Shown here piece after piece: positions 11,388-64,000 of a stretch of 64,000 nucleotides of DNA (the stretch's first letter is position 1; each line of letters starts with the position of its first letter). The stretch lies in NCBI GenBank assembly GCA_001782825.1, contig MFPS01000009.1:122102-186101 (forward strand), read 5' to 3'. A model generated the notes under the pieces. It had not been told where the DNA came from, did not search any database, and saw only the letters and a program-made list of their open reading frames with translations. Made by a program: the position numbers and the translations under genes. The DNA is from Candidatus Magasanikbacteria bacterium RIFCSPHIGHO2_01_FULL_33_34. Its GTDB lineage: Bacteria > Patescibacteriota > Patescibacteriia > Magasanikbacterales > UBA922.

Positions 11388-12653
11388 TTATTTTTTTGTT
11401 TTTACTTTTTTTGTATCTTCAGACTTTTTATCTGATTCAAGCTCAACAGCATCAGATTTTTCTTTTTTATCTTTTCCAGACTCTTTCTTTTCTTTCTTAT
11501 CTGGTTTTACTTCTGTTTTTTCACTTCTCTTGCCTTTTACACCTTCAGCTTTCAAACCTAAACGGTGTTCTGCTGGTTCAATATTTACAATCTCAAATTT
11601 ATATTCTTTACCAAGTTCAAATTTTTCTTTGAGCTCTTCAACACTCTTGATAGGTGTATCTGACAATTCAGAAATATGAGCAAGACCATGAATATCTTCA
11701 TCCAACTTTACCATAAGTCCAAACTGTTCAACTTTGTGAACTTCACCCTTAACAATTTGTCCCACTTTATAATTATCTTTCACTTTTTTCCATGGATCAT
11801 CAACCAAACGTTTGATTGACAAATAAATTTTTGATTTGTTCAAGTCAATAATTTGGGCTTTGACATTGTCGCCTACTTTCAAAACATCCTTTGGGTGATC
11901 AATTCTTTGCCAAACAATTTCCGAAATATGTACCAAACCTTCAAGACCCTCACCAAATTTTACAAATGCTCCAAATGGAGTAAGAGCAGCAATTTCTCCA
12001 TCAACCACATCCCCAATCTTGAATGCATCTAGAACTGCTTTTTGTTCATCTTCCCAAACTGCTTTTTCAGAAACAATCAATTTATCTTCTTTCTGATTGG
12101 CATCAAGGACTTTTACTTGTACTTTTTCACCAATTAATTTTTTTAATTTTTCTAAAATTCTTGACTTGTCTCCACCAGGTACACGTGGATAATGATCAGG
12201 ATTCAACTGAGAAACAGGCATAAATCCAACAATGGCGTCCACCTGCATCATCAAACCACCTTTGTTTGCGTCCAAAATTTTAGCTTCAATAGTAACACCA
12301 TCTTTAACCAATTCTGCCATTCTATCCCATACTCTCTGATTACCTGCGCTACGAAGTGACAATTCCATTTCACCATTTTCATTTTCTTGTTCAATTATGG
12401 TAGCTTCTACTTTATCTCCAATTTTGATATTGGCAAATTCATCAGATTCTGTAAAAAGTTCATGTCCTCTTACAATACCAGTAGTTAAGCCATTGATATC
12501 CAATCTAATAGCGCTACTATCAACTGAGATTACTGACCCCTCTACCAAATCTCCTTCATTTGGCATTTTTGCAAAATAATCTTTCAAAAGCTTACCAAAC
12601 TCACTATTGTCTTTAGCTTCATCTTTTGCACTCAAATTTAATTTCTTTGACAT
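11388..12653 (-). CDS. rpsA: 30S ribosomal protein S1 (four S1 domains, Lys-rich C-terminal tail)
   Basis: 421 aa with repeated S1-domain signatures (GxV..I..fGaFV). A bidirectional hairpin terminator, AAAACCCCTCAAAGTGAGGGGTTTTTG, lies at 11330-11360. Confidence 0.9.
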   Translation of the reverse strand: MSKKLNLSAKDEAKDNSEFGKLLKDYFAKMPNEGDLVEGSVISVDSSAIRLDINGLTTGIVRGHELFTESDEFANIKIGDKVEATIIEQENENGEMELSLRSAGNQRVWDRMAELVKDGVTIEAKILDANKGGLMMQVDAIVGFMPVSQLNPDHYPRVPGGDKSRILEKLKKLIGEKVQVKVLDANQKEDKLIVSEKAVWEDEQKAVLDAFKIGDVVDGEIAALTPFGAFVKFGEGLEGLVHISEIVWQRIDHPKDVLKVGDNVKAQIIDLNKSKIYLSIKRLVDDPWKKVKDNYKVGQIVKGEVHKVEQFGLMVKLDEDIHGLAHISELSDTPIKSVEELKEKFELGKEYKFEIVNIEPAEHRLGLKAEGVKGKRSEKTEVKPDKKEKKESGKDKKEKSDAVELESDKKSEDTKKVKTKK

Positions 12654-12916
12654 AAATTAATAATTAATAATTATCCTTGCTATTAGCAAAGCCTATCTAA
12701 ACTCCTGTCAAAAGGAAGTAGACAGATGATTTAATATATTTGGAATAGACTAAATAGCCTATTTCAAGGTGGCAGTAATATACACCATTTAAAATATTAT
12801 GTCAATATAAATTTATTTTATAGTATCTACCAACAAACCAATACTAAACAAACTTTATCAAACAAAAATACCTTATTTAAGCCAAAAAATATCACATTTT
12901 ACCCACCAATAACCTC

Positions 12917-19460: not shown

Positions 19461-19560
19461 ATTAGTTCTAATTATTTGTTTTTACGGATTTGGTTGCCAC
19501 AACAGGCAACCACCTCGGAGCCACAGCGAGAATGAGTAAAAACAAATAATTAGAACTAAT
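19461..19560 (+). repeat. Nested-hairpin repeat element, copy 2
   Basis: 25-bp perfect terminal inverted repeat ATTAGTTCTAATTATTTGTTTTTAC/GTAAAAACAAATAATTAGAACTAAT enclosing the conserved core. Confidence 0.7.
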
Positions 19561-22462: not shown

Positions 22463-22512
22463 AAAATAATCACTAAGGTATAAAAATTGAAATCATCATT
22501 TATAATTAAGTA

Positions 22513-22608
22513 TTAATTTCAATTATTTGTTTTTACGGATTTGATGCTCCAATAAGCATCACCCTCGGAGCCAAAGCGAGAATGAGTAAAAACAAATAAT
22601 TGAAATTA
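22513..22608 (+). repeat. Nested-hairpin repeat element, copy 3
   Basis: 24-bp perfect inverted repeat TTAATTTCAATTATTTGTTTTTAC/GTAAAAACAAATAATTGAAATTAA. Inner hairpin GATGCT-CCAATAA-GCATC shows compensatory changes relative to GGTTGCC-ACAACA-GGCAACC in copy 2. Confidence 0.7.
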
Positions 22609-22714
22609 ATACAATCTTGGTCAAAAATATAAACAACACTGTCTTATCTTACAATCAAGAAATTTGCCTAATTATAGGCACAAGTATAAACTACTATACA
22701 AAAGAAATGCAGGA

Positions 22715-23870: not shown

Positions 23871-23929
23871 TTAAAATTTACTTAATTAATAACTTGTTAG
23901 AAAAACTAATGTTATTTATAAAATAATAA

Positions 23930-24027
23930 AAGTCTGATAATTATATTTTTTACGGATTTGGTTGCTACAACAAACAACCACCTCGGAGTCCAAACGAGAA
24001 TGAGTAAAAAATATAATTATCAGACTT
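23930..24027 (+). repeat. Nested-hairpin repeat element, copy 4
   Basis: 24-bp perfect inverted repeat AAGTCTGATAATTATATTTTTTAC/GTAAAAAATATAATTATCAGACTT. The stem sequence differs from the other copies, but pairing is preserved. Confidence 0.7.
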
Positions 24028-24087
24028 TACTACCAAAAAACAATACAAATAACATTACAAAATCTTACAAATAACTTAATAAATATT

Positions 24088-29569: not shown

Positions 29570-29820
29570 ATTAAATAAAATTATATTATAACTAAAATAT
29601 ATTATACTCCATTAGAAATTCTTGGCAAGAACAAAAAAACAGACACCAACAGCATGATACCTGCAAATAAATAATAATAAATAGGGGCAAAACCTTCATT
29701 CTGTATTTCTGTTGTGCCCAAAACTGACCCAAACTTATCTTGTTTGTTACTCATATGTTTATGTTTATGTTTATTTTTGTATAAAAAAATCTTGAAGTCA
29801 ATGACAACAAGAAATTTTTT

Positions 29821-46676: not shown

Positions 46677-47534
46677 TTATTGAATAGACATTGTACCACC
46701 AAATACACCTACACTAGGTACACCATCTGCTGTAAACGATGCAATAGCATTGCCATCAACAGAAACATCTAGCATCTTTGTATTATATCTACCATCACGA
46801 TGTATACACAAAACAGTATCAAATTCATCCAATGAGTGAGTGTGTACCCTCAAAGTCTGAGGCTCACCATTTACATCAATAGTCCCAGTCCAATCAAACT
46901 CTGTTTCATCTGGATTAAAATAATCTGCCATTACAACAGTCTCATCAACATCTACTGTATCATCAAAATGAAGTTCTAAATCAGATGCACCTTGCAAACT
47001 CCACCCCAGTGCAAAATGAATATGTCTAGAATCTATTACTCTTGTATCTGTCAAATTTATTGTTCCCGCAAGACCTACTCGTCCAGAAGGCGATATTTTT
47101 ATTACTCTATTTTCATCATTGTCATCCACCAGTCTCAAAATAATATCACCTACATGGTCAGTTTTACCTGTAATCCGATCAAAAACGACTGACACGCCAA
47201 AAGTATTACCCCAAATATCTGTATACTCAACATTATCTGAAAAATAAAAAACTTCATTATTTGGATCATTTACATCCCAATCAAATCCCTTATATATGGC
47301 ATAATAAGTCGGCTCAAAACGAACCCCATATTGATCATTCTCCTTGGAAGAAAGAGTTCTTTCTGATGCTAAATGTAATGCAGAAATCACATCATTTACC
47401 GAAGTATTCAATTCTAATCTTTTGACAAACGATCTATAACTTACAAAACCACCAACTACCAAAATACTTGCTGTTGAAACAACCAATAAAATTTCTACAA
47501 GTGAAAAACCTCGTTTATTTAAACATTTAAGCAT
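46677..47534 (-). CDS. Type IV pilin/pseudopilin (prepilin-type N-terminus)
   Basis: True start is MLKCLNKRGFSLVEILLVVSTASILVVGG (ATG at 47534). The upstream 18 codons of the ORF-track call lie in the AT-rich palindromic leader. Confidence 0.75.
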   Translation of the reverse strand: MLKCLNKRGFSLVEILLVVSTASILVVGGFVSYRSFVKRLELNTSVNDVISALHLASERTLSSKENDQYGVRFEPTYYAIYKGFDWDVNDPNNEVFYFSDNVEYTDIWGNTFGVSVVFDRITGKTDHVGDIILRLVDDNDENRVIKISPSGRVGLAGTINLTDTRVIDSRHIHFALGWSLQGASDLELHFDDTVDVDETVVMADYFNPDETEFDWTGTIDVNGEPQTLRVHTHSLDEFDTVLCIHRDGRYNTKMLDVSVDGNAIASFTADGVPSVGVFGGTMSIQ

Positions 47535-47650
47535 ATAAACATATAAACATTCCATCGTTCCCAATAACAAATAAATTATTTGATGCAAATTTTATTAAAA
47601 ACAAAATATGTTTATATGTTTGTATGTTTACATGTTAAGTATTATATCAC
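47535..47650 (-). promoter_or_regulatory. Conserved palindromic AT-rich leader A (TATAAT, then CATACAAACATATAAACATAT, then AATGTTTATATGTTTATATG overlapping the start codon)
   Basis: Minus-strand reading: GATATAATACTTAACATGTAAACATACAAACATATAAACATATTTTGTTT ... GGAATGTTTATATGTTTATATGCTTAAATG. A near-identical arrangement is found at 62456-62592. Confidence 0.5.
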
Positions 47651-48980: not shown

Positions 48981-49195
48981 AATTTAATGTATATTCTTAT
49001 TAATCCGCTTTCTTGTCTATCCTTGGGATCGACCGACAAACAATAATCACAAATAATATAGTGGAAATAATATACCATTATGATATAGAAATGTCAATAG
49101 TTAACCATAATTTAATCTAAATAATAAACTAAAATACAAAATAGCAAAATTAGTAAAAATATGATATAATTTATTTGAATAAATATTGCTATTTT

Positions 49196-50923
49196 ATGCT
49201 TTCTCAAAAAATAATCACAAAAATACTCAAAGAAAAATACGGAATAAATGCAAAAGAACTTAATACCCATATTGCTACTGCCGAGAAACAAAAAAAAACT
49301 CTTGAACAATATGTACTTGATGAAAACATTGCTGACGAAGTAGAACTTTACTCAGAAGCAGCTATCAAACTCAAAATTCCTTTTGTTGCTCTAAAAGGAA
49401 GAGAAATAAAAAAAGAAATCTTAAATATTATTCCAGCACCTTTGGCCCAAACACACCAAATGGTTGTTTTTGCTACCACAAAAGAAGAAATGCAACTAGC
49501 AATGTTAGATCCAACTGATATTCAAACTATAGAATTTATCCAAAGAAAAACAAACTTGACCCCAAAAGTATATATAACCACACCCAGTGATATCAAAGAT
49601 GCGCTACGTCGATACCATGCTGATCTTGGAGATGACATGTCTATTGAACAACTCAAAGAAGGTCCATCAGTTGGTGCAAGTGATCTTAAAAAAGCCGCTG
49701 AAGAACTTCCTGTCGTAAATATTGTCAACAATATTTTAGAACATGCTGTTTTTGAAAACGCATCTGATATACATATTGAACCACAAGAAAAAGAAGTGAC
49801 TATACGCTATCGCATTGATGGTATCTTAAAAAATGTAATGACTCTACCAAAAACAATTCAAGGTGGTATTATTGCCCGTATAAAAATTCTTTCCAAACTT
49901 AAAATCGACGAACACATGTTACCTCAAGACGGAAGATTTAAAATAAAAATACAAGAAGACAAATTATCATTTCGTGTTTCTATTATACCAGTTTATGATG
50001 GTGAAAAAATCGTAATGCGTCTTTTGCACGAAGGACAAAAACCATTAAATCTAGACCAACTTGGATTTCTACCCGTACCAAAAAAGAAAGTAGAACGCGC
50101 CATAAAAAGTCCTCACGGAATGATACTAGTAACTGGCCCGACCGGTAGTGGTAAAACCACAACCCTATATTCTGTGCTTGGGTTACTTAACCGACCTGGT
50201 GTAAATATTTGTACTATAGAAGATCCAATTGAATATCATGTCCAAGGAATCAACCAAAGCCAAATAAATGTACGAGCTGGTTTTACTTTTGCCAGTGGTC
50301 TTCGTTCTTTTTTGCGTCAAGATCCTGATATTATTATGGTTGGAGAAATTCGTGACAAAGAAACTGCTGAAATTGCTATCCACTCAGCCATGACTGGACA
50401 TCTAGTACTCTCCACACTCCACACAAATGACGCACCTACAACTGTACCCCGTCTAATTGATATGGATATTCCACCTTTTTTAATAGCTTTTACAGCCAAC
50501 ATCATAATCGCTCAACGTTTAGTAAGAAAAATGTGTGAATTTTGCAAAAAAGAATTAGTCTTAGAAAAAGATGCGATTACTGAATTACAAAAAATATCCG
50601 ATACCAAAAAACTATTAGAACTTTTCAAAGAACATAATATTGAATTAAAAAAACAAGAAATAAACTTCGACTCATTTACATTTTATAGAGGTGAAGGTTG
50701 TCGACGATGCAACAATAGTGGATACAAAGGACGAATAGGTATTTATGAAGTACTTGAAATTGATAGTACCCTTACAAACAAAATCAATGAAGGAGCCAAT
50801 GCTGACGACATCAAAAAATATGCCATTGAAAAAGGTATGATTACTATGCTACAAGATGGACTTATCAAAGCCAAGCAAGGAGTCACAACTATAGAAGAAG
50901 TACTTAGAGCAACTAGAGAATAA
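49196..50923 (+). CDS. pilB: Type IV pilus assembly ATPase PilB (GspE family)
   Basis: N-terminal T2SSE_N domain, Walker A GPTGSGKTT, Asp box, His box, and a C-terminal tetra-Cys motif (CEFC...CRRC). The ORF-track TTG start at 49175 sits on a putative -10 (TATAAT at 49165-49170); ATG at 49196 is more likely. Confidence 0.9.
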   Translation: MLSQKIITKILKEKYGINAKELNTHIATAEKQKKTLEQYVLDENIADEVELYSEAAIKLKIPFVALKGREIKKEILNIIPAPLAQTHQMVVFATTKEEMQLAMLDPTDIQTIEFIQRKTNLTPKVYITTPSDIKDALRRYHADLGDDMSIEQLKEGPSVGASDLKKAAEELPVVNIVNNILEHAVFENASDIHIEPQEKEVTIRYRIDGILKNVMTLPKTIQGGIIARIKILSKLKIDEHMLPQDGRFKIKIQEDKLSFRVSIIPVYDGEKIVMRLLHEGQKPLNLDQLGFLPVPKKKVERAIKSPHGMILVTGPTGSGKTTTLYSVLGLLNRPGVNICTIEDPIEYHVQGINQSQINVRAGFTFASGLRSFLRQDPDIIMVGEIRDKETAEIAIHSAMTGHLVLSTLHTNDAPTTVPRLIDMDIPPFLIAFTANIIIAQRLVRKMCEFCKKELVLEKDAITELQKISDTKKLLELFKEHNIELKKQEINFDSFTFYRGEGCRRCNNSGYKGRIGIYEVLEIDSTLTNKINEGANADDIKKYAIEKGMITMLQDGLIKAKQGVTTIEEVLRATRE

Positions 50924-60626: not shown

Positions 60627-60699
60627 TGGACCGAACAGGACTTGAACCCGCTACCTCCGCAGTGCAAATGCGGCGCTCTACCAGATGAGCTATCGGCCC
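60627..60699 (-). tRNA. tRNA-Ala (anticodon TGC)
   Basis: Reverse complement GGGCCGATAGCTCATCTGGTAGAGCGCCGCATTTGCACTGCGGAGGTAGCGGGTTCAAGTCCTGTTCGGTCCA. G3:U70 identity pair and anticodon loop TTTGCAC. No encoded CCA. Confidence 0.8.
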
Positions 60700-60754: not shown

Positions 60755-62455
60755 TCAATGGCTACTATCCTTAAATCTCTGTCTCATTTCATTGATTTGG
60801 TCTTTTTTGAGTTCATTAAAAGTATGTTTGGTCCATGGTTTATTTTTCAAAATATTAGACATCCATGAACCACCCAACAAATGTGGCATCATAACATAAT
60901 TGGCGCCAGCTTTGTATACATCATCTATATGAACAGGGTGATACAAATTACCAATAATAACAGCTTTGCCACCATTTTGTCTCACCGTTCTTATCAATGT
61001 ATTTTGTGAATCAAACTCAGGTATAGTTGAAACAATCAATTTTGCCTTTTCAAGCGGAAGAATCTGTAAAAATTCAACATCAGCTGCATCACCAAAATAG
61101 GCTGGAATATTTCTACTTTTTAATCTACTAATAGCTTCAGGGTTAAAATCTACTACAGCATATTTAACATTCATTTCTTCTAGTGCTTCACACACTTTCC
61201 AACCAATTCTATGATAACCAAACACCCATACTTTATATGGCTCAGCATCCTTTATTTTATCTTTAAATTTGTCATTCCCAAATTTTTTCAAAAAAGGTAA
61301 TATTTTTTGATATAACTGATCATTGTATGTAATAAAATATGAAGAAATTACAATCGTAATAAGAGCTGTCATTGTAAGTATAGTTACTTCATTTCCATAC
61401 AAATAACCCAAATCTTTACCTTTGAAAACCAATATAAAACCAAATTCACTAACTTGCGCAGCGGTAATACCAGCAAAAAAAGCATTTCTACGAGTATACT
61501 TCATACTTCTCATCACTACATACAAGACCAAAGGATCAACAATTAATATAAAAATAGACAAAATAATTGCTGGCCAAAAAGAAGAATACACATCACCTAT
61601 CTGCATTTGACTTCCCAAGACAATAAAAAATAAAACTATAAAAAAATCTCGCAAAGGCCTTATACGACTAACAATTTGAGATTGATAAGGAGATGCGCCT
61701 AAAGAAATACCCGCTATAACCGCCCCAATTTCAATATTAAAACCTGCCCAATAAACCAAGCTAGCCACCCCAAAACACCATGCAATCGTAAAAATAAATA
61801 ATAATTCTCCAGAGTGAGCTACCTTTTCAATCAATATTGGCAAAATATATCGTGCTGCCAAAAAAACAATACCTATCAAAAGTATACCCTTGCTTATTGT
61901 CATCATAAATACTTCCCCCAATGTTCCCTCTCCACCAACAGTATTCAAGAAAATCATTATAATAACAGCTATAATATCTTGTACCAAAAGCAATCCAATC
62001 ACATACCTGCCATACATTGATTCACTATCTTTCTTCTCTGACAAAAATTTAGTGACAATAATCGTACTAGAAAATGTAATGGCAACCGCAACAAACATTG
62101 CTGAAACAGCCCCGTACCCCAATGCTTTCATTATCAAAAATCCTAAAGATGCTGCCAAAAGAAACTGAACTATACCACCGATAAAAACAACCTTGCCAAC
62201 TTTTTTGATATATTCAAAATTCAAACTCAAACCCACAATAAACAATAATAATACAATCCCAAAATGCGCAAAAGTTTCAAAAAATGCTTCACCACCATGA
62301 AGTAAGTTAAAAAATAATGGACCACCAACAATACCGGCTATAATATACGCAACTACAAGAGGCTGTTTGAACAAACGCAAAACAAGAGCAATCGTCACTG
62401 TAATTGCAAGCAATGTACTAATTTGAATAAAAATATTATCAACCACATTTAACAT
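60755..62455 (-). CDS. Cation:proton antiporter (CPA2/Kef-type) with C-terminal RCK/TrkA-N domain
   Basis: 566 aa. N-terminal 12-13 TM Na+/H+-exchanger domain. C-terminal Rossmann segment KVWVFGYHRIGWKVCEALEEMNVKYAVVD. Start is MLNVVDN at 62455. Confidence 0.75.
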   Translation of the reverse strand: MLNVVDNIFIQISTLLAITVTIALVLRLFKQPLVVAYIIAGIVGGPLFFNLLHGGEAFFETFAHFGIVLLLFIVGLSLNFEYIKKVGKVVFIGGIVQFLLAASLGFLIMKALGYGAVSAMFVAVAITFSSTIIVTKFLSEKKDSESMYGRYVIGLLLVQDIIAVIIMIFLNTVGGEGTLGEVFMMTISKGILLIGIVFLAARYILPILIEKVAHSGELLFIFTIAWCFGVASLVYWAGFNIEIGAVIAGISLGASPYQSQIVSRIRPLRDFFIVLFFIVLGSQMQIGDVYSSFWPAIILSIFILIVDPLVLYVVMRSMKYTRRNAFFAGITAAQVSEFGFILVFKGKDLGYLYGNEVTILTMTALITIVISSYFITYNDQLYQKILPFLKKFGNDKFKDKIKDAEPYKVWVFGYHRIGWKVCEALEEMNVKYAVVDFNPEAISRLKSRNIPAYFGDAADVEFLQILPLEKAKLIVSTIPEFDSQNTLIRTVRQNGGKAVIIGNLYHPVHIDDVYKAGANYVMMPHLLGGSWMSNILKNKPWTKHTFNELKKDQINEMRQRFKDSSH

Positions 62456-62592
62456 TTAAACATATAAGCATATAAACATTAAAACATAAAAATTGACTTA
62501 CTATCATCAAAAAACTTTCAAACAAAATATTTCAATTTGTTTAAATGCTTATATGTTTATATGTTTGTATGCTTATTATTATACCAAATTTT
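62456..62592 (-). promoter_or_regulatory. Conserved palindromic AT-rich leader B (same arrangement as leader A)
   Basis: Minus-strand reading: GGTATAATAATAAGCATACAAACATATAAACATATAAGCATTTAAACAAATTGAAATATTTTGTTT ... TTAATGTTTATATGCTTATATGTTTAAATG overlapping the ATG. Confidence 0.5.
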
Positions 62593-64000
62593 TTAACGTT
62601 TTACGAATGATATAATAGATACTAAAAACCGTTTAAGAAATCTTTTGATAAAAAAAGCTCGTGATTTTAAACTTATACCAATCAACGTTAATACCAAACC
62701 AATAATTATGGCTGTCAAATATTTTTCAGTATTATTTTTTTTAATTTCTTGCGAATTTAATAAATTGTCAGTTGATGTGGCCACATCAATTAATTCTATA
62801 TCCATATCAAAGCGTGGCATTAATTGTACGCCAGATGTACTATTGCCTAATATTCCTTTTATGATCATATTGTCACCCACATCAAACAAGCTTTTGTCTA
62901 TATTTGCATTTTTTTTAAAATAAACTTTAATTTCTTCACTCCCATCATCAAGATAAATATATGTGCTTTTCTTTTCAGTTATTTCACCACTTATTTGCAA
63001 ATAACTTCCTATATAATTTTCTGTAATTTCATTTATTTCAATTTTTTGTTCAACAAGCTCAGCTTTATCTAATACAACAATATCTTTTTTTGCCTTTATT
63101 TTAACCCTAGTTTCTCCATAAGCCATAGAAATCTCCCCTACTATTTCAACTTCATCACCCACTTCAAATTCAGGAAAATCCTTGCTATACATATAAACCT
63201 GAACGCCAGCAATATTGTCTGTAATATAAAAATACTGCGTACCAAAAATATTTGGCATCACACTTACAATTCCTTTTGTTTTTATTTGAGTGCCAACCTC
63301 AAGAGTCCTTATTTCAGACAAGCTAACATTTACTATTAATTTATAACCACTAGTATTAGATACTATTTTTACCAATGGTTTTGAAAAAGTATTTTTTACA
63401 CCCGGAGTAATCTGTGTTGTCCATTGCCATTCATCATCTTCATCACGAGAAAAACTTGCGCCCTCAACCACACTCACATAATCAATCTCATCAACAACAG
63501 TATCGTCCAACCATAACAAACGTGCTGAATCAATTGTATTATTTAATGCAATCTTTGTATCCCATTTACCAAATACCATATATTCACCGGCTTTAATAAA
63601 AGTATTATCAGGAATTTTGTAAGGTCTTGAACCACCTTCTTCATCATCCAACCTTAATCCTGTCAAATCAAAATCTTCATTTGTTGGATTATACAGCTCA
63701 ATCATTTCTGTTGAATCTGACCCAGCTGGATTTGGTAAAATTTCTGTAATTATTATATTTACATCTTCAATATTTCTTTGACTATTTTTATTTCCTATAT
63801 TCTCCAAATTATTTTTTATGGTTGTTGTATTTGTAATTACAGAATTATAAATTTTTGTAGATGTACTTAATGTATATTCTTCTTCATCTGATTCTATATA
63901 TATTATATTTTCAATACCCTTGGTAATTTCCATTGTAATAACAAAATCAATAGAATCCATATCAGTATCTTGACCATCATAAACTCTCGCAACTGCAAAA
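62593..64000 (-). CDS. Lamin-tail-domain (LTD) surface protein with OB-fold-like domain and C-terminal TM anchor. N-terminus runs off the window edge
   Basis: LTD signature IIITEILPNPAGSDSTEMIELYNPTNEDFDLTGLRLDDE. C-terminal TM TAIIIGLVLTLIGISL. The frame is open through position 64000. Confidence 0.6.
   Translation of the reverse strand, partial: FAVARVYDGQDTDMDSIDFVITMEITKGIENIIYIESDEEEYTLSTSTKIYNSVITNTTTIKNNLENIGNKNSQRNIEDVNIIITEILPNPAGSDSTEMIELYNPTNEDFDLTGLRLDDEEGGSRPYKIPDNTFIKAGEYMVFGKWDTKIALNNTIDSARLLWLDDTVVDEIDYVSVVEGASFSRDEDDEWQWTTQITPGVKNTFSKPLVKIVSNTSGYKLIVNVSLSEIRTLEVGTQIKTKGIVSVMPNIFGTQYFYITDNIAGVQVYMYSKDFPEFEVGDEVEIVGEISMAYGETRVKIKAKKDIVVLDKAELVEQKIEINEITENYIGSYLQISGEITEKKSTYIYLDDGSEEIKVYFKKNANIDKSLFDVGDNMIIKGILGNSTSGVQLMPRFDMDIELIDVATSTDNLLNSQEIKKNNTEKYLTAIIIGLVLTLIGISLKSRAFFIKRFLKRFLVSIISFVKR

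Follow-up and report, generated by a model that had tools for sequence, protein, structure and literature searches.

A palindrome of tandem octamers in the leader of a Kef-type antiporter gene of Candidatus Magasanikbacteria

What is a long palindrome doing across the start codon of a gene in a genome that is poor in Shine-Dalgarno (SD) motifs? The question is raised by a 137-nt intergenic region (62456-62592) of Candidatus Magasanikbacteria bacterium RIFCSPHIGHO2_01_FULL_33_34, a member of the Patescibacteria or Candidate Phyla Radiation (CPR), in which the spacer and both flanking genes are read on the minus strand. All coordinates without a locus name refer to the window, that is, the whole stretch of 64,000 nt that was analysed (contig MFPS01000009.1, positions 122,102 to 186,101). 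Homologues of the antiporter likewise assign the window to this group. An initial annotation had described in this spacer, between an LTD surface protein gene and a CPA2/Kef-type antiporter gene, the second copy of a palindromic leader that occludes a start codon, and gene calls and Pfam bear out that position. The palindrome is real and non-random. Its best explanation is a short-tandem-repeat palindrome, in which two opposed arrays of AT-rich octamers (ATGYTTWW and its complement) lie inside a very short native leader. The parts of the locus are as follows.

62578-62586, minus strand: extended -10 promoter element TGGTATAAT, a match to TGNTATAAT, 7 nt past the stop codon of the LTD gene.
62538-62576, minus strand: 5' arm, AAGCATAC AAACATAT AAACATAT AAGCATTT AAACA, about 4.9 units of a ATAAACAT-type octamer (Tandem Repeats Finder and inverted-repeat search).
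62493-62537, minus strand: spacer or loop, containing ATG 62507 and unrelated in sequence to the loop of the sister copy, leader A (sequence and fold).
62451-62492, minus strand: 3' arm, ATGTTTTA ATGTTTAT ATGCTTAT ATGTTTAA ATGTT, about 5 units of a ATGTTTAT-type octamer, containing ATG 62455 (Tandem Repeats Finder and motif search).
62444-62455, minus strand: start region with ATG 62455-62453, the first in-frame ATG, and GTG 62446-62444, the start-codon position in orthologues (M-V-D-N).
62439-62507, minus strand: upstream open reading frame (ORF) of 22 codons, MIVSQFLCFNVYMLICLNVKCG, which begins in the loop and spans the entire 3' arm, its stop codon TGA 62441-62439 lying just within the antiporter ORF.
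60755-62455, minus strand: gene for the CPA2/KefB-type cation:proton (K+/H+) antiporter, with the domains Na_H_Exchanger and TrkA_N (Pfam).
62593-63960, minus strand: upstream gene with LTD and OB-fold domains (Pfam), whose orthologues additionally carry a ComEA-like HHH_3 domain.

Tandem Repeats Finder reported a period of 8 in both arms, with 5.2 copies at 62451-62492 and 4.9 copies at 62538-62576, and this tandem build of each arm is an addition to the earlier description. The best register of the inverted repeat covers 28 nt at 93% complementarity (62451-62478 with 62538-62565) and the longest 36 nt at 78%, the distance between the arms being 45-59 nt according to the register. A 19-nt motif of two units has, with 3 mismatches at most, 10 matches in the window against 0.13 expected from shuffled sequences, and all 10 are confined to the antiporter leader and to 47517-47636 in leader A. 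Folded as RNA, the antiporter leader (leader B) has a minimum free energy of -36.6 kcal/mol (z -5.47), against -31.0 kcal/mol (z -4.45) for leader A, a comparison that the initial annotation had proposed; folded as DNA it reaches -20 kcal/mol (z -3.8). The predicted helix of the antiporter leader is about 35 bp long, AU-rich with 7 G-C pairs, and has a stability of about -35 kcal/mol. The string quoted earlier as the 3' arm, AATGTTTATATGCTTATATGTTTAAATGTTAAATG, was found exactly at 62480-62446 of the minus strand and does include ATG 62455-62453.

The sister copy precedes a pilin-like gene.

47517-47649, minus strand: leader A, with TGATATAAT at 47649-47641, the 5' arm at 47636-47606 and the 3' arm at 47551-47517; the ATG of the pilin-like gene is at 47534.

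As had been claimed, the antiporter leader is a second copy of this kind of palindrome. The arms are near-identical at the two loci and the loops are unrelated in sequence; the 5' arms of the two leaders have CATACAAACATATAAACATAT in common and the 3' arms ATGTTTATATGCTTAWATGTTTAAAT. Leader A is invariant in 8 independent assemblies that are 99.99-100% identical across window positions 36677-57555, which rules out an assembly artefact for leader A. These assemblies are consensus sequences of one strain, and the antiporter leader lies outside the part that they cover. Phase variation by unit number is without support, the unit number of leader A being constant in these eight consensus sequences. 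A RIFCSPLOWO2_01_FULL Magasanikbacteria genome encodes a protein identical to the pilin-like one. An exact copy of the antiporter protein was not found on record.

A match to TGNTATAAT stands directly 5' of the first arm in both leaders (62586-62578 and 47649-47641), and at the antiporter leader the first arm begins 1-2 nt past the -10 hexamer. On the minus strand the spacer runs from the stop codon TAA of the LTD gene (62595-62593) through AAAATT, TGGTATAAT (62586-62578) and AAT into the 5' arm, and it ends with the 3' arm followed by AAAT GTG GTT GAT AAT. The (T)AAATTTGGTATAAT after the LTD stop is kept in four related genomes (loci L001, L003, L004 and L008), with TTATAAT and TATACT as variants, and the start region (A/G)TG GTT GAT AAT is kept in the orthologous antiporter loci of the same genomes; TTTTGTGNTATAAT upstream of the pilin gene is likewise kept among orthologues. 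The predicted transcription start falls at about 62573-62571, the first bases of the 5' arm, and with the extended -10 element directly 5' of that arm the palindrome would be the whole 5' untranslated region (UTR).

Both ATG 62455 and GTG 62446 lie in the 3' arm or at its foot. Because orthologues begin with M-V-D-N, GTG 62446-62444 is probably the ancestral start, to which ATG 62455 adds three codons at the 5' side. An SD-like motif was found at 3 of the 66 ORF starts in the window. ORF starts lie behind plain AT-rich sequence, and several genes look leaderless or very short-leadered after a TGnTATAAT element. In an SD-less organism initiation would have to use an open AU-rich start region, which the hairpin would close. 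The start-codon occlusion put forward in the initial annotation therefore stands as geometry, with the 3' arm over the start codon, a conserved -10 element that places the palindrome in the 5' UTR and an SD-poor genome, and the regulatory role attached to it is only partly supported.

We tentatively favour the reading that the palindrome is transcribed and, as a hairpin, truly affects translation or stability, and consider this possible, if short of probable. The mRNA would begin with the 5' arm and its UTR would end with the 3' arm, so that a helix of about 35 bp (about -35 kcal/mol) would bury both the 5' end and the start codon. Such a hairpin would strongly throttle or gate translation of the antiporter, and it may also shield the 5' end against 5'-end-dependent decay. 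Expression would then depend on melting, on helicases, on cleavage of the long duplex by RNase III, or on entry of ribosomes from the loop. More speculatively, the upstream ORF 62507-62439 could serve as a coupling device, and in leader A an in-frame AUG at 47555, at the edge of the loop, would merely lengthen the cleaved prepilin leader peptide. Strong hairpins are built from unrelated repeat units at the same antiporter leader in other species (L004, L134), and from octamers in L008. A riboswitch that senses a ligand, an RNA thermometer, a terminator and a transposable element are all rejected as readings of the element. The arrays would most simply have arisen by replication slippage and an inverted (template-switch) duplication, in keeping with their tandem-plus-inverted architecture and rapid turnover.

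The same site was compared in related genomes. A metagenome scan for relatives of the antiporter yielded only 8 loci. Percentages give the identity of the antiporter to that of the window, and each entry describes the leader from the -10 element to the start.

L001 and L002 (83%): AAATTCGA units, without a significant single hairpin (z about -1).
L003 (82%): about 30 nt, no repeat.
L004 to L007 (80%): inverted pairs of 14-nt units, AGTTCATAGCCAAT and TTGGCTCCGAACTA, z -3.9.
L008 and L009 (76%): inverted arrays of ATGTTTTA octamers between the -10 element and the start, z -4.6.
L134 (62%): inverted ATAACTTT octamers around GC hairpins, -51.5 kcal/mol.
L131 and L133 (61-62%): small GC-rich hairpins in the leader.
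L136 (61%): short plain leader.
L130 (61%): leaderless (TATAATGTCTACATG).

In the orthologous antiporter leaders the promoter and the M-V-D-N start are thus kept and the sequence in between is replaced. At leader A, the orthologue L147 has the same octamer palindrome, closed by a loop of 4 nt; in L146 the loop of this palindrome is about 140 nt long and full of other octamer arrays, within a 730-nt spacer; and L145 has no palindrome. L003 and L145 belong to one genome, and this genome has no insert at either leader; L001 and L146 belong to another, which is full of arrays. The RIFOXY*_FULL_40 genomes, taken as one species, carry ATG-octamers at leader A and 14-mers at leader B, with further ATG-octamer arrays at the start of VIT1 and at another gene. 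Syntenic spacers in four related genomes measure 137, 41, 199 and 119 nt between the LTD and antiporter genes, 157, 97, 730 and 130 nt between S18 and pilin, 50, 54, 154 and 116 nt between S6 and SSB, and 36, 14, 175 and 142 nt between SSB and S18. The extra DNA consists of tandem arrays, often inverted, with a unit of its own at each site. Turnover of the repeat elements, by gain, replacement or loss, is rapid, and the antiporter leader is only one of their sites.

Some details of these relatives may be recorded here. The 730-nt spacer of L146 (2271-3000; 97-157 nt in relatives) holds nested arrays of TAAGCAGA and its complement, of GACTTTAG, and three ATGTTT-type arrays, and the GACTTTAG unit reappears in the first codons of the pilin gene (ATGACTTTAGACTT). 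In L001 a tandem tract, AAATTCGAAATTCGAAATCCGAAATCCGAAA (12748-12780), lies in a variable loop of the YchF coding region and leaves the protein length unchanged; its first 17 nt match exactly the AAATTCGA array in the antiporter leader of that genome, which indicates that such tracts can spread locally. The spacer between antiporter and ychF contains one tRNA in the window (60627-60699), and L001 has at 11700-12100 a tandem series of two or three tRNA-like copies, in which a lead-in, TTATACGGGCCAGTAGCTCATCTGGTAGAGCG, is repeated.

Several results weigh against a functional hairpin. The insert-free L003/L145 genome, the leaderless L130 and the short leader of L136 indicate that the hairpin is dispensable. 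Repeat hairpins also occupy other intergenic regions of relatives, such as S6-SSB and SSB-S18, and are thus not evidently enriched at this gene. In a set of 18 curated octamer hairpins, the complementarity of a 5' arm to its own 3' arm was not significantly better than to foreign 3' arms, with a mean rank of 8.5 against 9.5 expected (permutation p about 0.07), a test of low power because the retrieval pattern fixed 5 of the 8 unit positions. Mismatches in the same hairpins comprised 26 G.U, 24 A.C and 71 others, with no wobble bias on the given strand, and the sense fold was more stable than the antisense fold in only 6 of 8 leaders. Many other octamer arrays are antisense, partnerless or abut stop codons, and the transcription start is a prediction from a promoter consensus. 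A dedicated regulatory leader, as the initial annotation had it, was consequently not shown: arrays elsewhere also occur partnerless, antisense or between convergent genes, relatives have other units or no insert at all, and the arms show neither significant hairpin-specific covariation nor strand asymmetry.

These results bear at the same time on the explanation that survives best beside a functional hairpin, namely that the element is a neutral or selfish by-product. Slippage and template-switch expansions in the scarce non-coding DNA of streamlined genomes would be tolerated without any function being used, and an effect on the antiporter would be incidental, or neutralised by helicases and RNases; taken as a whole we regard this as rather unlikely, though a serious contender. 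The fast turnover at syntenic sites, where spacer lengths and units differ among four related genomes, fits it well, as do the pairing of a genome without arrays (L003/L145) with one full of them (L001/L146), the array inside the ychF coding sequence of L001 with its 17-nt exact match, the presence of inverted arrays of many unit types across CPR and at some non-CPR loci, and the finding of no significant covariation and no strand asymmetry in the arms. However, a hairpin of about -35 kcal/mol over the start of a conserved transporter gene should be costly in an SD-less organism, yet strong hairpins recur at the leader in several species; inverted pairing of the same unit within about 100 nt is far commoner than independent origins predict; and leader A is identical in eight assemblies.

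The octamer is not restricted to this clade. A pattern scan with one genome per species (ATGYTTNN three times followed by ATG) gave at least 119 loci, of which at least about 30 are labelled Patescibacteria (Magasanik-, Moran-, Falkow-, Kuenen-, Doudna-, Portnoy-, Uhr- and Saccharibacteria). Many array loci of Patescibacteria have a complementary array upstream, with loops of 6 to about 60 nt among the matches listed. Start codons were confirmed with Pfam, the profile beginning at residues 2-6. On this basis the last ATG of the array is itself the start codon of the genes for TrxB and glutaredoxin (L110), GltX (L121) and PrgI (L015), and in the cases of PGM, a glycosyltransferase, L20 and a PfkB kinase 4-7 nt separate the end of the array from the start. 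At L004 (VIT1), L121 (gltX), L054 and L120 unpartnered direct arrays make up the entire 5' UTR, and at L089 two arms abut the stop codons of convergent genes, in the manner of a bidirectional terminator. A scan with Tandem Repeats Finder that took no account of the unit brought out inverted arrays whose units, of many kinds, are 6-9 nt long: 47 in 424 kb of CPR loci and 28 in 553 kb of non-CPR loci, for example AATTACG in a metagenome-assembled genome of Prevotellaceae. The antiporter-leader element belongs to a class of short-tandem-repeat palindromes that is widespread, changes fast and is apparently undescribed; no description of such a class in CPR was found in the literature searched.

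Some further observations concern short repeats. Runs of N, which mark assembly gaps, lie exactly within octamer arrays in L110 (about 1900-1935) and L121 (about 1580-1676), which indicates that these repeats break short-read assemblies. In the window, (AAACAT)x4 at 29755-29778, the complement of the ATGTTT core with a period of 6 nt, stands directly 5' of the ATG of the minus-strand ORF 29754-29602, which encodes a predicted membrane protein of 50 aa (MSNKQDKFGSV...), and is the third start-abutting short tandem repeat of the window. A weaker inverted repeat with 31-nt arms, 74% complementary and of AAAATAGC-type units, occupies the divergent S6/PilB promoter region at 49131-49202, its 3' arm lying over the start region of pilB. 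Among plasmids, E. coli CP088859.1 (L148, 2405-2545) and seven similar plasmids of about 30 kb carry a long direct array, (CATATAAG)x17, between a ccdAB module and a gene for a TadA-like ATPase; this octamer is one unit type of the arms in the window. The plasmid array is probably an iteron or a centromere-like site, and arrays of this type are probably behind many of the non-CPR matches of the pattern scan.

The breadth of the family also suits a second alternative, in which the arrays act as DNA. Each octamer would be a 4-bp ATGY/RCAT box with a 4-bp AT spacer, bound by a conserved CPR protein such as a ribbon-helix-helix repressor, which would coat the arrays in either orientation just downstream of the -10 element and across the start, and would place the pilin operon and the antiporter under joint control; we judge this distinctly unlikely. 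Precedents exist in the arrays of 8-bp metboxes bound by MetJ, in the 4+4-bp boxes of ParG/parH, which are direct and inverted, and in the heptads of omega protein. Tandem 7-8-bp units, direct or inverted, at promoters are a feature that the octamer arrays share with these operators, and the same consensus at two promoters of one genome and in many CPR lineages, a 5' arm that begins 1-2 nt past the -10 hexamer, and arrays that are independent of orientation, variable in copy number and spacing and without significant RNA-type covariation or a G.U bias all favour it. On the other hand, the window holds no excess of single octamers (72 against 83 expected), the leaders of sister species carry unrelated units and would need other regulators, some arrays are flanked by convergent genes or extend into the ends of coding sequences, where no promoter is in view, and no candidate binding protein was identified. 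Occurrence away from promoters and the lack of a known binding protein thus set the octamer arrays apart from the ribbon-helix-helix operators.

Two further proposals would give the octamer itself a role in initiation. A highly unlikely one sees in ATGYTTWW arrays a cis-element that is present throughout the Patescibacteria and recognised by a conserved factor acting in trans, direct arrays being initiation pads and inverted pairs an off-switch; this factor could be a protein that binds RNA or DNA, or else the machinery of SD-independent initiation itself. If true, such arrays would link, at the level of expression, genes for pili, ion transport, redox functions (TrxB, Grx) and translation (L20, GltX), and would constitute a new kind of post-transcriptional regulon in organisms without SD initiation. 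In the narrower form, AUG-phased octamers (AUGUUUUA, AUGUUUAA) would provide an SD-independent landing or relay zone for ribosomes, with the inverted copy as an anti-enhancer; the upstream AUGs mostly open ORFs of 2-7 codons in which the UAA stop overlaps or abuts the next AUG, and ribosomes would so be funnelled to the last AUG. The UAAUG and UAA-AUG junctions do follow from the unit sequence, arrays end exactly at the confirmed start codons of several genes, direct arrays alone form the whole 5' UTR of VIT1 (L004) and gltX (L121), the upstream ORF 62507-62439 ends at the main start, and the genome is SD-less. Against this, the family has no overall orientation bias, with about as many arrays antisense or beside stop codons, the complement (AAACAT)4 abuts another start codon in the window, and many repeat units at other sites lack ATG, so that a landing zone of this kind must be considered very improbable.

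Known classes of element were considered as well and rejected. In Rfam the window gave 4 tRNAs only at the gathering threshold, and 62300-62750 gave no match at E<=10. An RNA thermometer of the ROSE or fourU type is at odds with the absence of an SD sequence and with a helix of about 35 bp and about -35 kcal/mol. An intrinsic terminator or attenuator was rejected on an AU-rich stem with 7 G-C pairs and 0 terminator-like sites in 62300-62800. Among leader A, leader B, L008 and L147 the arms are kept and the loops cannot be aligned, and neither spacer nor unit number is conserved between copies; the element is therefore neither a miniature inverted-repeat transposable element nor a REP/REPIN sequence copied as a unit. 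No target-site duplication was evident by eye at the ends of the arms, and there are 2 loci in the 64 kb. Records of phages gave no match to the element, and plasmid matches were limited to unrelated long direct (CATATAAG)n arrays in E. coli. A DNA uptake sequence (DUS/USS) or similar dispersed signal is excluded, since single octamers are not enriched (ATGYTTWW 72 times in the window against 83 +/- 8 expected). An invertible promoter was rejected with the promoter outside the repeats and a spacer of about 45-59 nt, and a stem-loop tigRNA (TIGR-Tas) with no shared loop motif and, among the flanking genes scanned with Pfam, housekeeping and pilus functions and no Nop domain.

The closest published case is that of the TAACTGA repeats, heptamer direct repeats near start codons in marine Beggiatoaceae and also in cyanobacteria and Bacteroidetes (MacGregor 2015, PMC4679880). 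They occur in 2-6 or more units a few nt from the starts of unrelated genes, housekeeping genes included, and occasionally inside ORFs; in genes that lack an SD sequence they overlap the position of a ribosome-binding site, and for their function, as yet unknown, post-transcriptional or translational regulation has been proposed (PMC4679880). In the BOGUAY genome 169 direct sets were counted and one indirect set (PMC4679880). The octamer arrays are likewise start-proximal short tandem repeats without an SD sequence, and the array of the antiporter leader reaches ATG 62455 and GTG 62446 in an SD-poor genome. They differ in the ATG-containing 8-mer, in occurring in both orientations without an orientation bias of the family, in the inverted partner, with which they very often form long hairpins, and in the CPR host.

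Other comparisons are more distant. The STRR (short tandemly repeated repetitive) sequences of heterocystous cyanobacteria are intergenic tandem arrays of 6-9-nt units and sporadic phylogenetic distribution for which slippage has been proposed as the origin. These and the 'long simple sequence repeats', whose units measure 5-11 nt (Mrazek et al. 2007, summarised in PMC4679880), resemble the octamer arrays; the antiporter leader itself has a tandem 8-nt unit in non-coding DNA and a motif found 10 times against 0.13 expected. Unlike STRR sequences, the octamer arrays are short, with 4-5 units, keep to gene boundaries and commonly form palindromes.

Intergenic imperfect palindromes that are co-transcribed and change mRNA stability, processing (by RNase III for NEMIS) or translation are familiar from the REP/BIME/REPIN, ERIC and Correia (NEMIS) families. 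Such elements are homogeneous within a genome and divergent between genomes; each copy is made as a whole, its internal sequence conserved, the copies number tens to hundreds, and a transposase (RAYT) or target-site duplications are associated with them. The octamer palindrome would resemble them as a co-transcribed hairpin that may alter the fate of the mRNA, and differs in that its copies share the repeat unit only, with loops and unit numbers that vary. In 5'-UTR hairpins that sequester the start site, of which RNA thermometers are examples, pairing of a 5' segment with the initiation region prevents the 30S subunit from binding; structure-controlled initiation is said to have been studied by de Smit and van Duin. 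The octamer helix exceeds these classical hairpins by far in length and stability, consists of tandem repeats, and has neither an SD/anti-SD logic nor a conserved sensor architecture.

Stem-loop tigRNAs of CPR (TIGR-Tas) have variable stems, box C/D-like motifs at the base of the stem, a spacer pair and a tas gene nearby (Xu et al. 2026, bioRxiv 10.64898/2026.09.09.750476), whereas the octamer palindromes lack box motifs and have no shared loop motif and no tas (Nop-domain) gene among the flanking genes scanned with Pfam. The window does contain a second hairpin family, at 19461-19560, 22510-22612 and 23929-24028, with outer AU stems of 30-32 nt that differ between copies, a loop of about 40 nt with an inner GC hairpin, and conservation only of the bases at the foot of the stem (TTTTTACGGATTTG ... 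GAGAATGAGTAAAAA). Its layout matches the described CPR stem-loop tigRNAs (bioRxiv 10.64898/2026.09.09.750476) better than the octamer palindrome does. Its neighbours are housekeeping genes (RuvA, LAP, IleRS, RpiB, Rpe, TrxB), with no Nop-domain gene and no Rfam match.

What is new with respect to known systems is the ATG-containing octamer unit, its frequent inverted pairing into long hairpins, and the CPR host. The CPR or Patescibacteria make up a large share of bacterial diversity and have tiny genomes with little non-coding DNA, here without SD initiation, and the control of their gene expression is almost unknown. Our observations suggest that many of the few intergenic bases of CPR genomes are taken by fast-evolving repeat palindromes that abut start and stop codons and that would, if transcribed, enclose start codons. 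If the hairpins do not act, they would represent a mutational load that is striking for streamlined genomes, and a reason why assemblies repeatedly have gaps; if they do act, they would offer a simple and evolvable setting of translation levels without regulators. The class could thus explain how expression is tuned in SD-less, regulator-poor CPR genomes, or reveal a peculiar mutational process.

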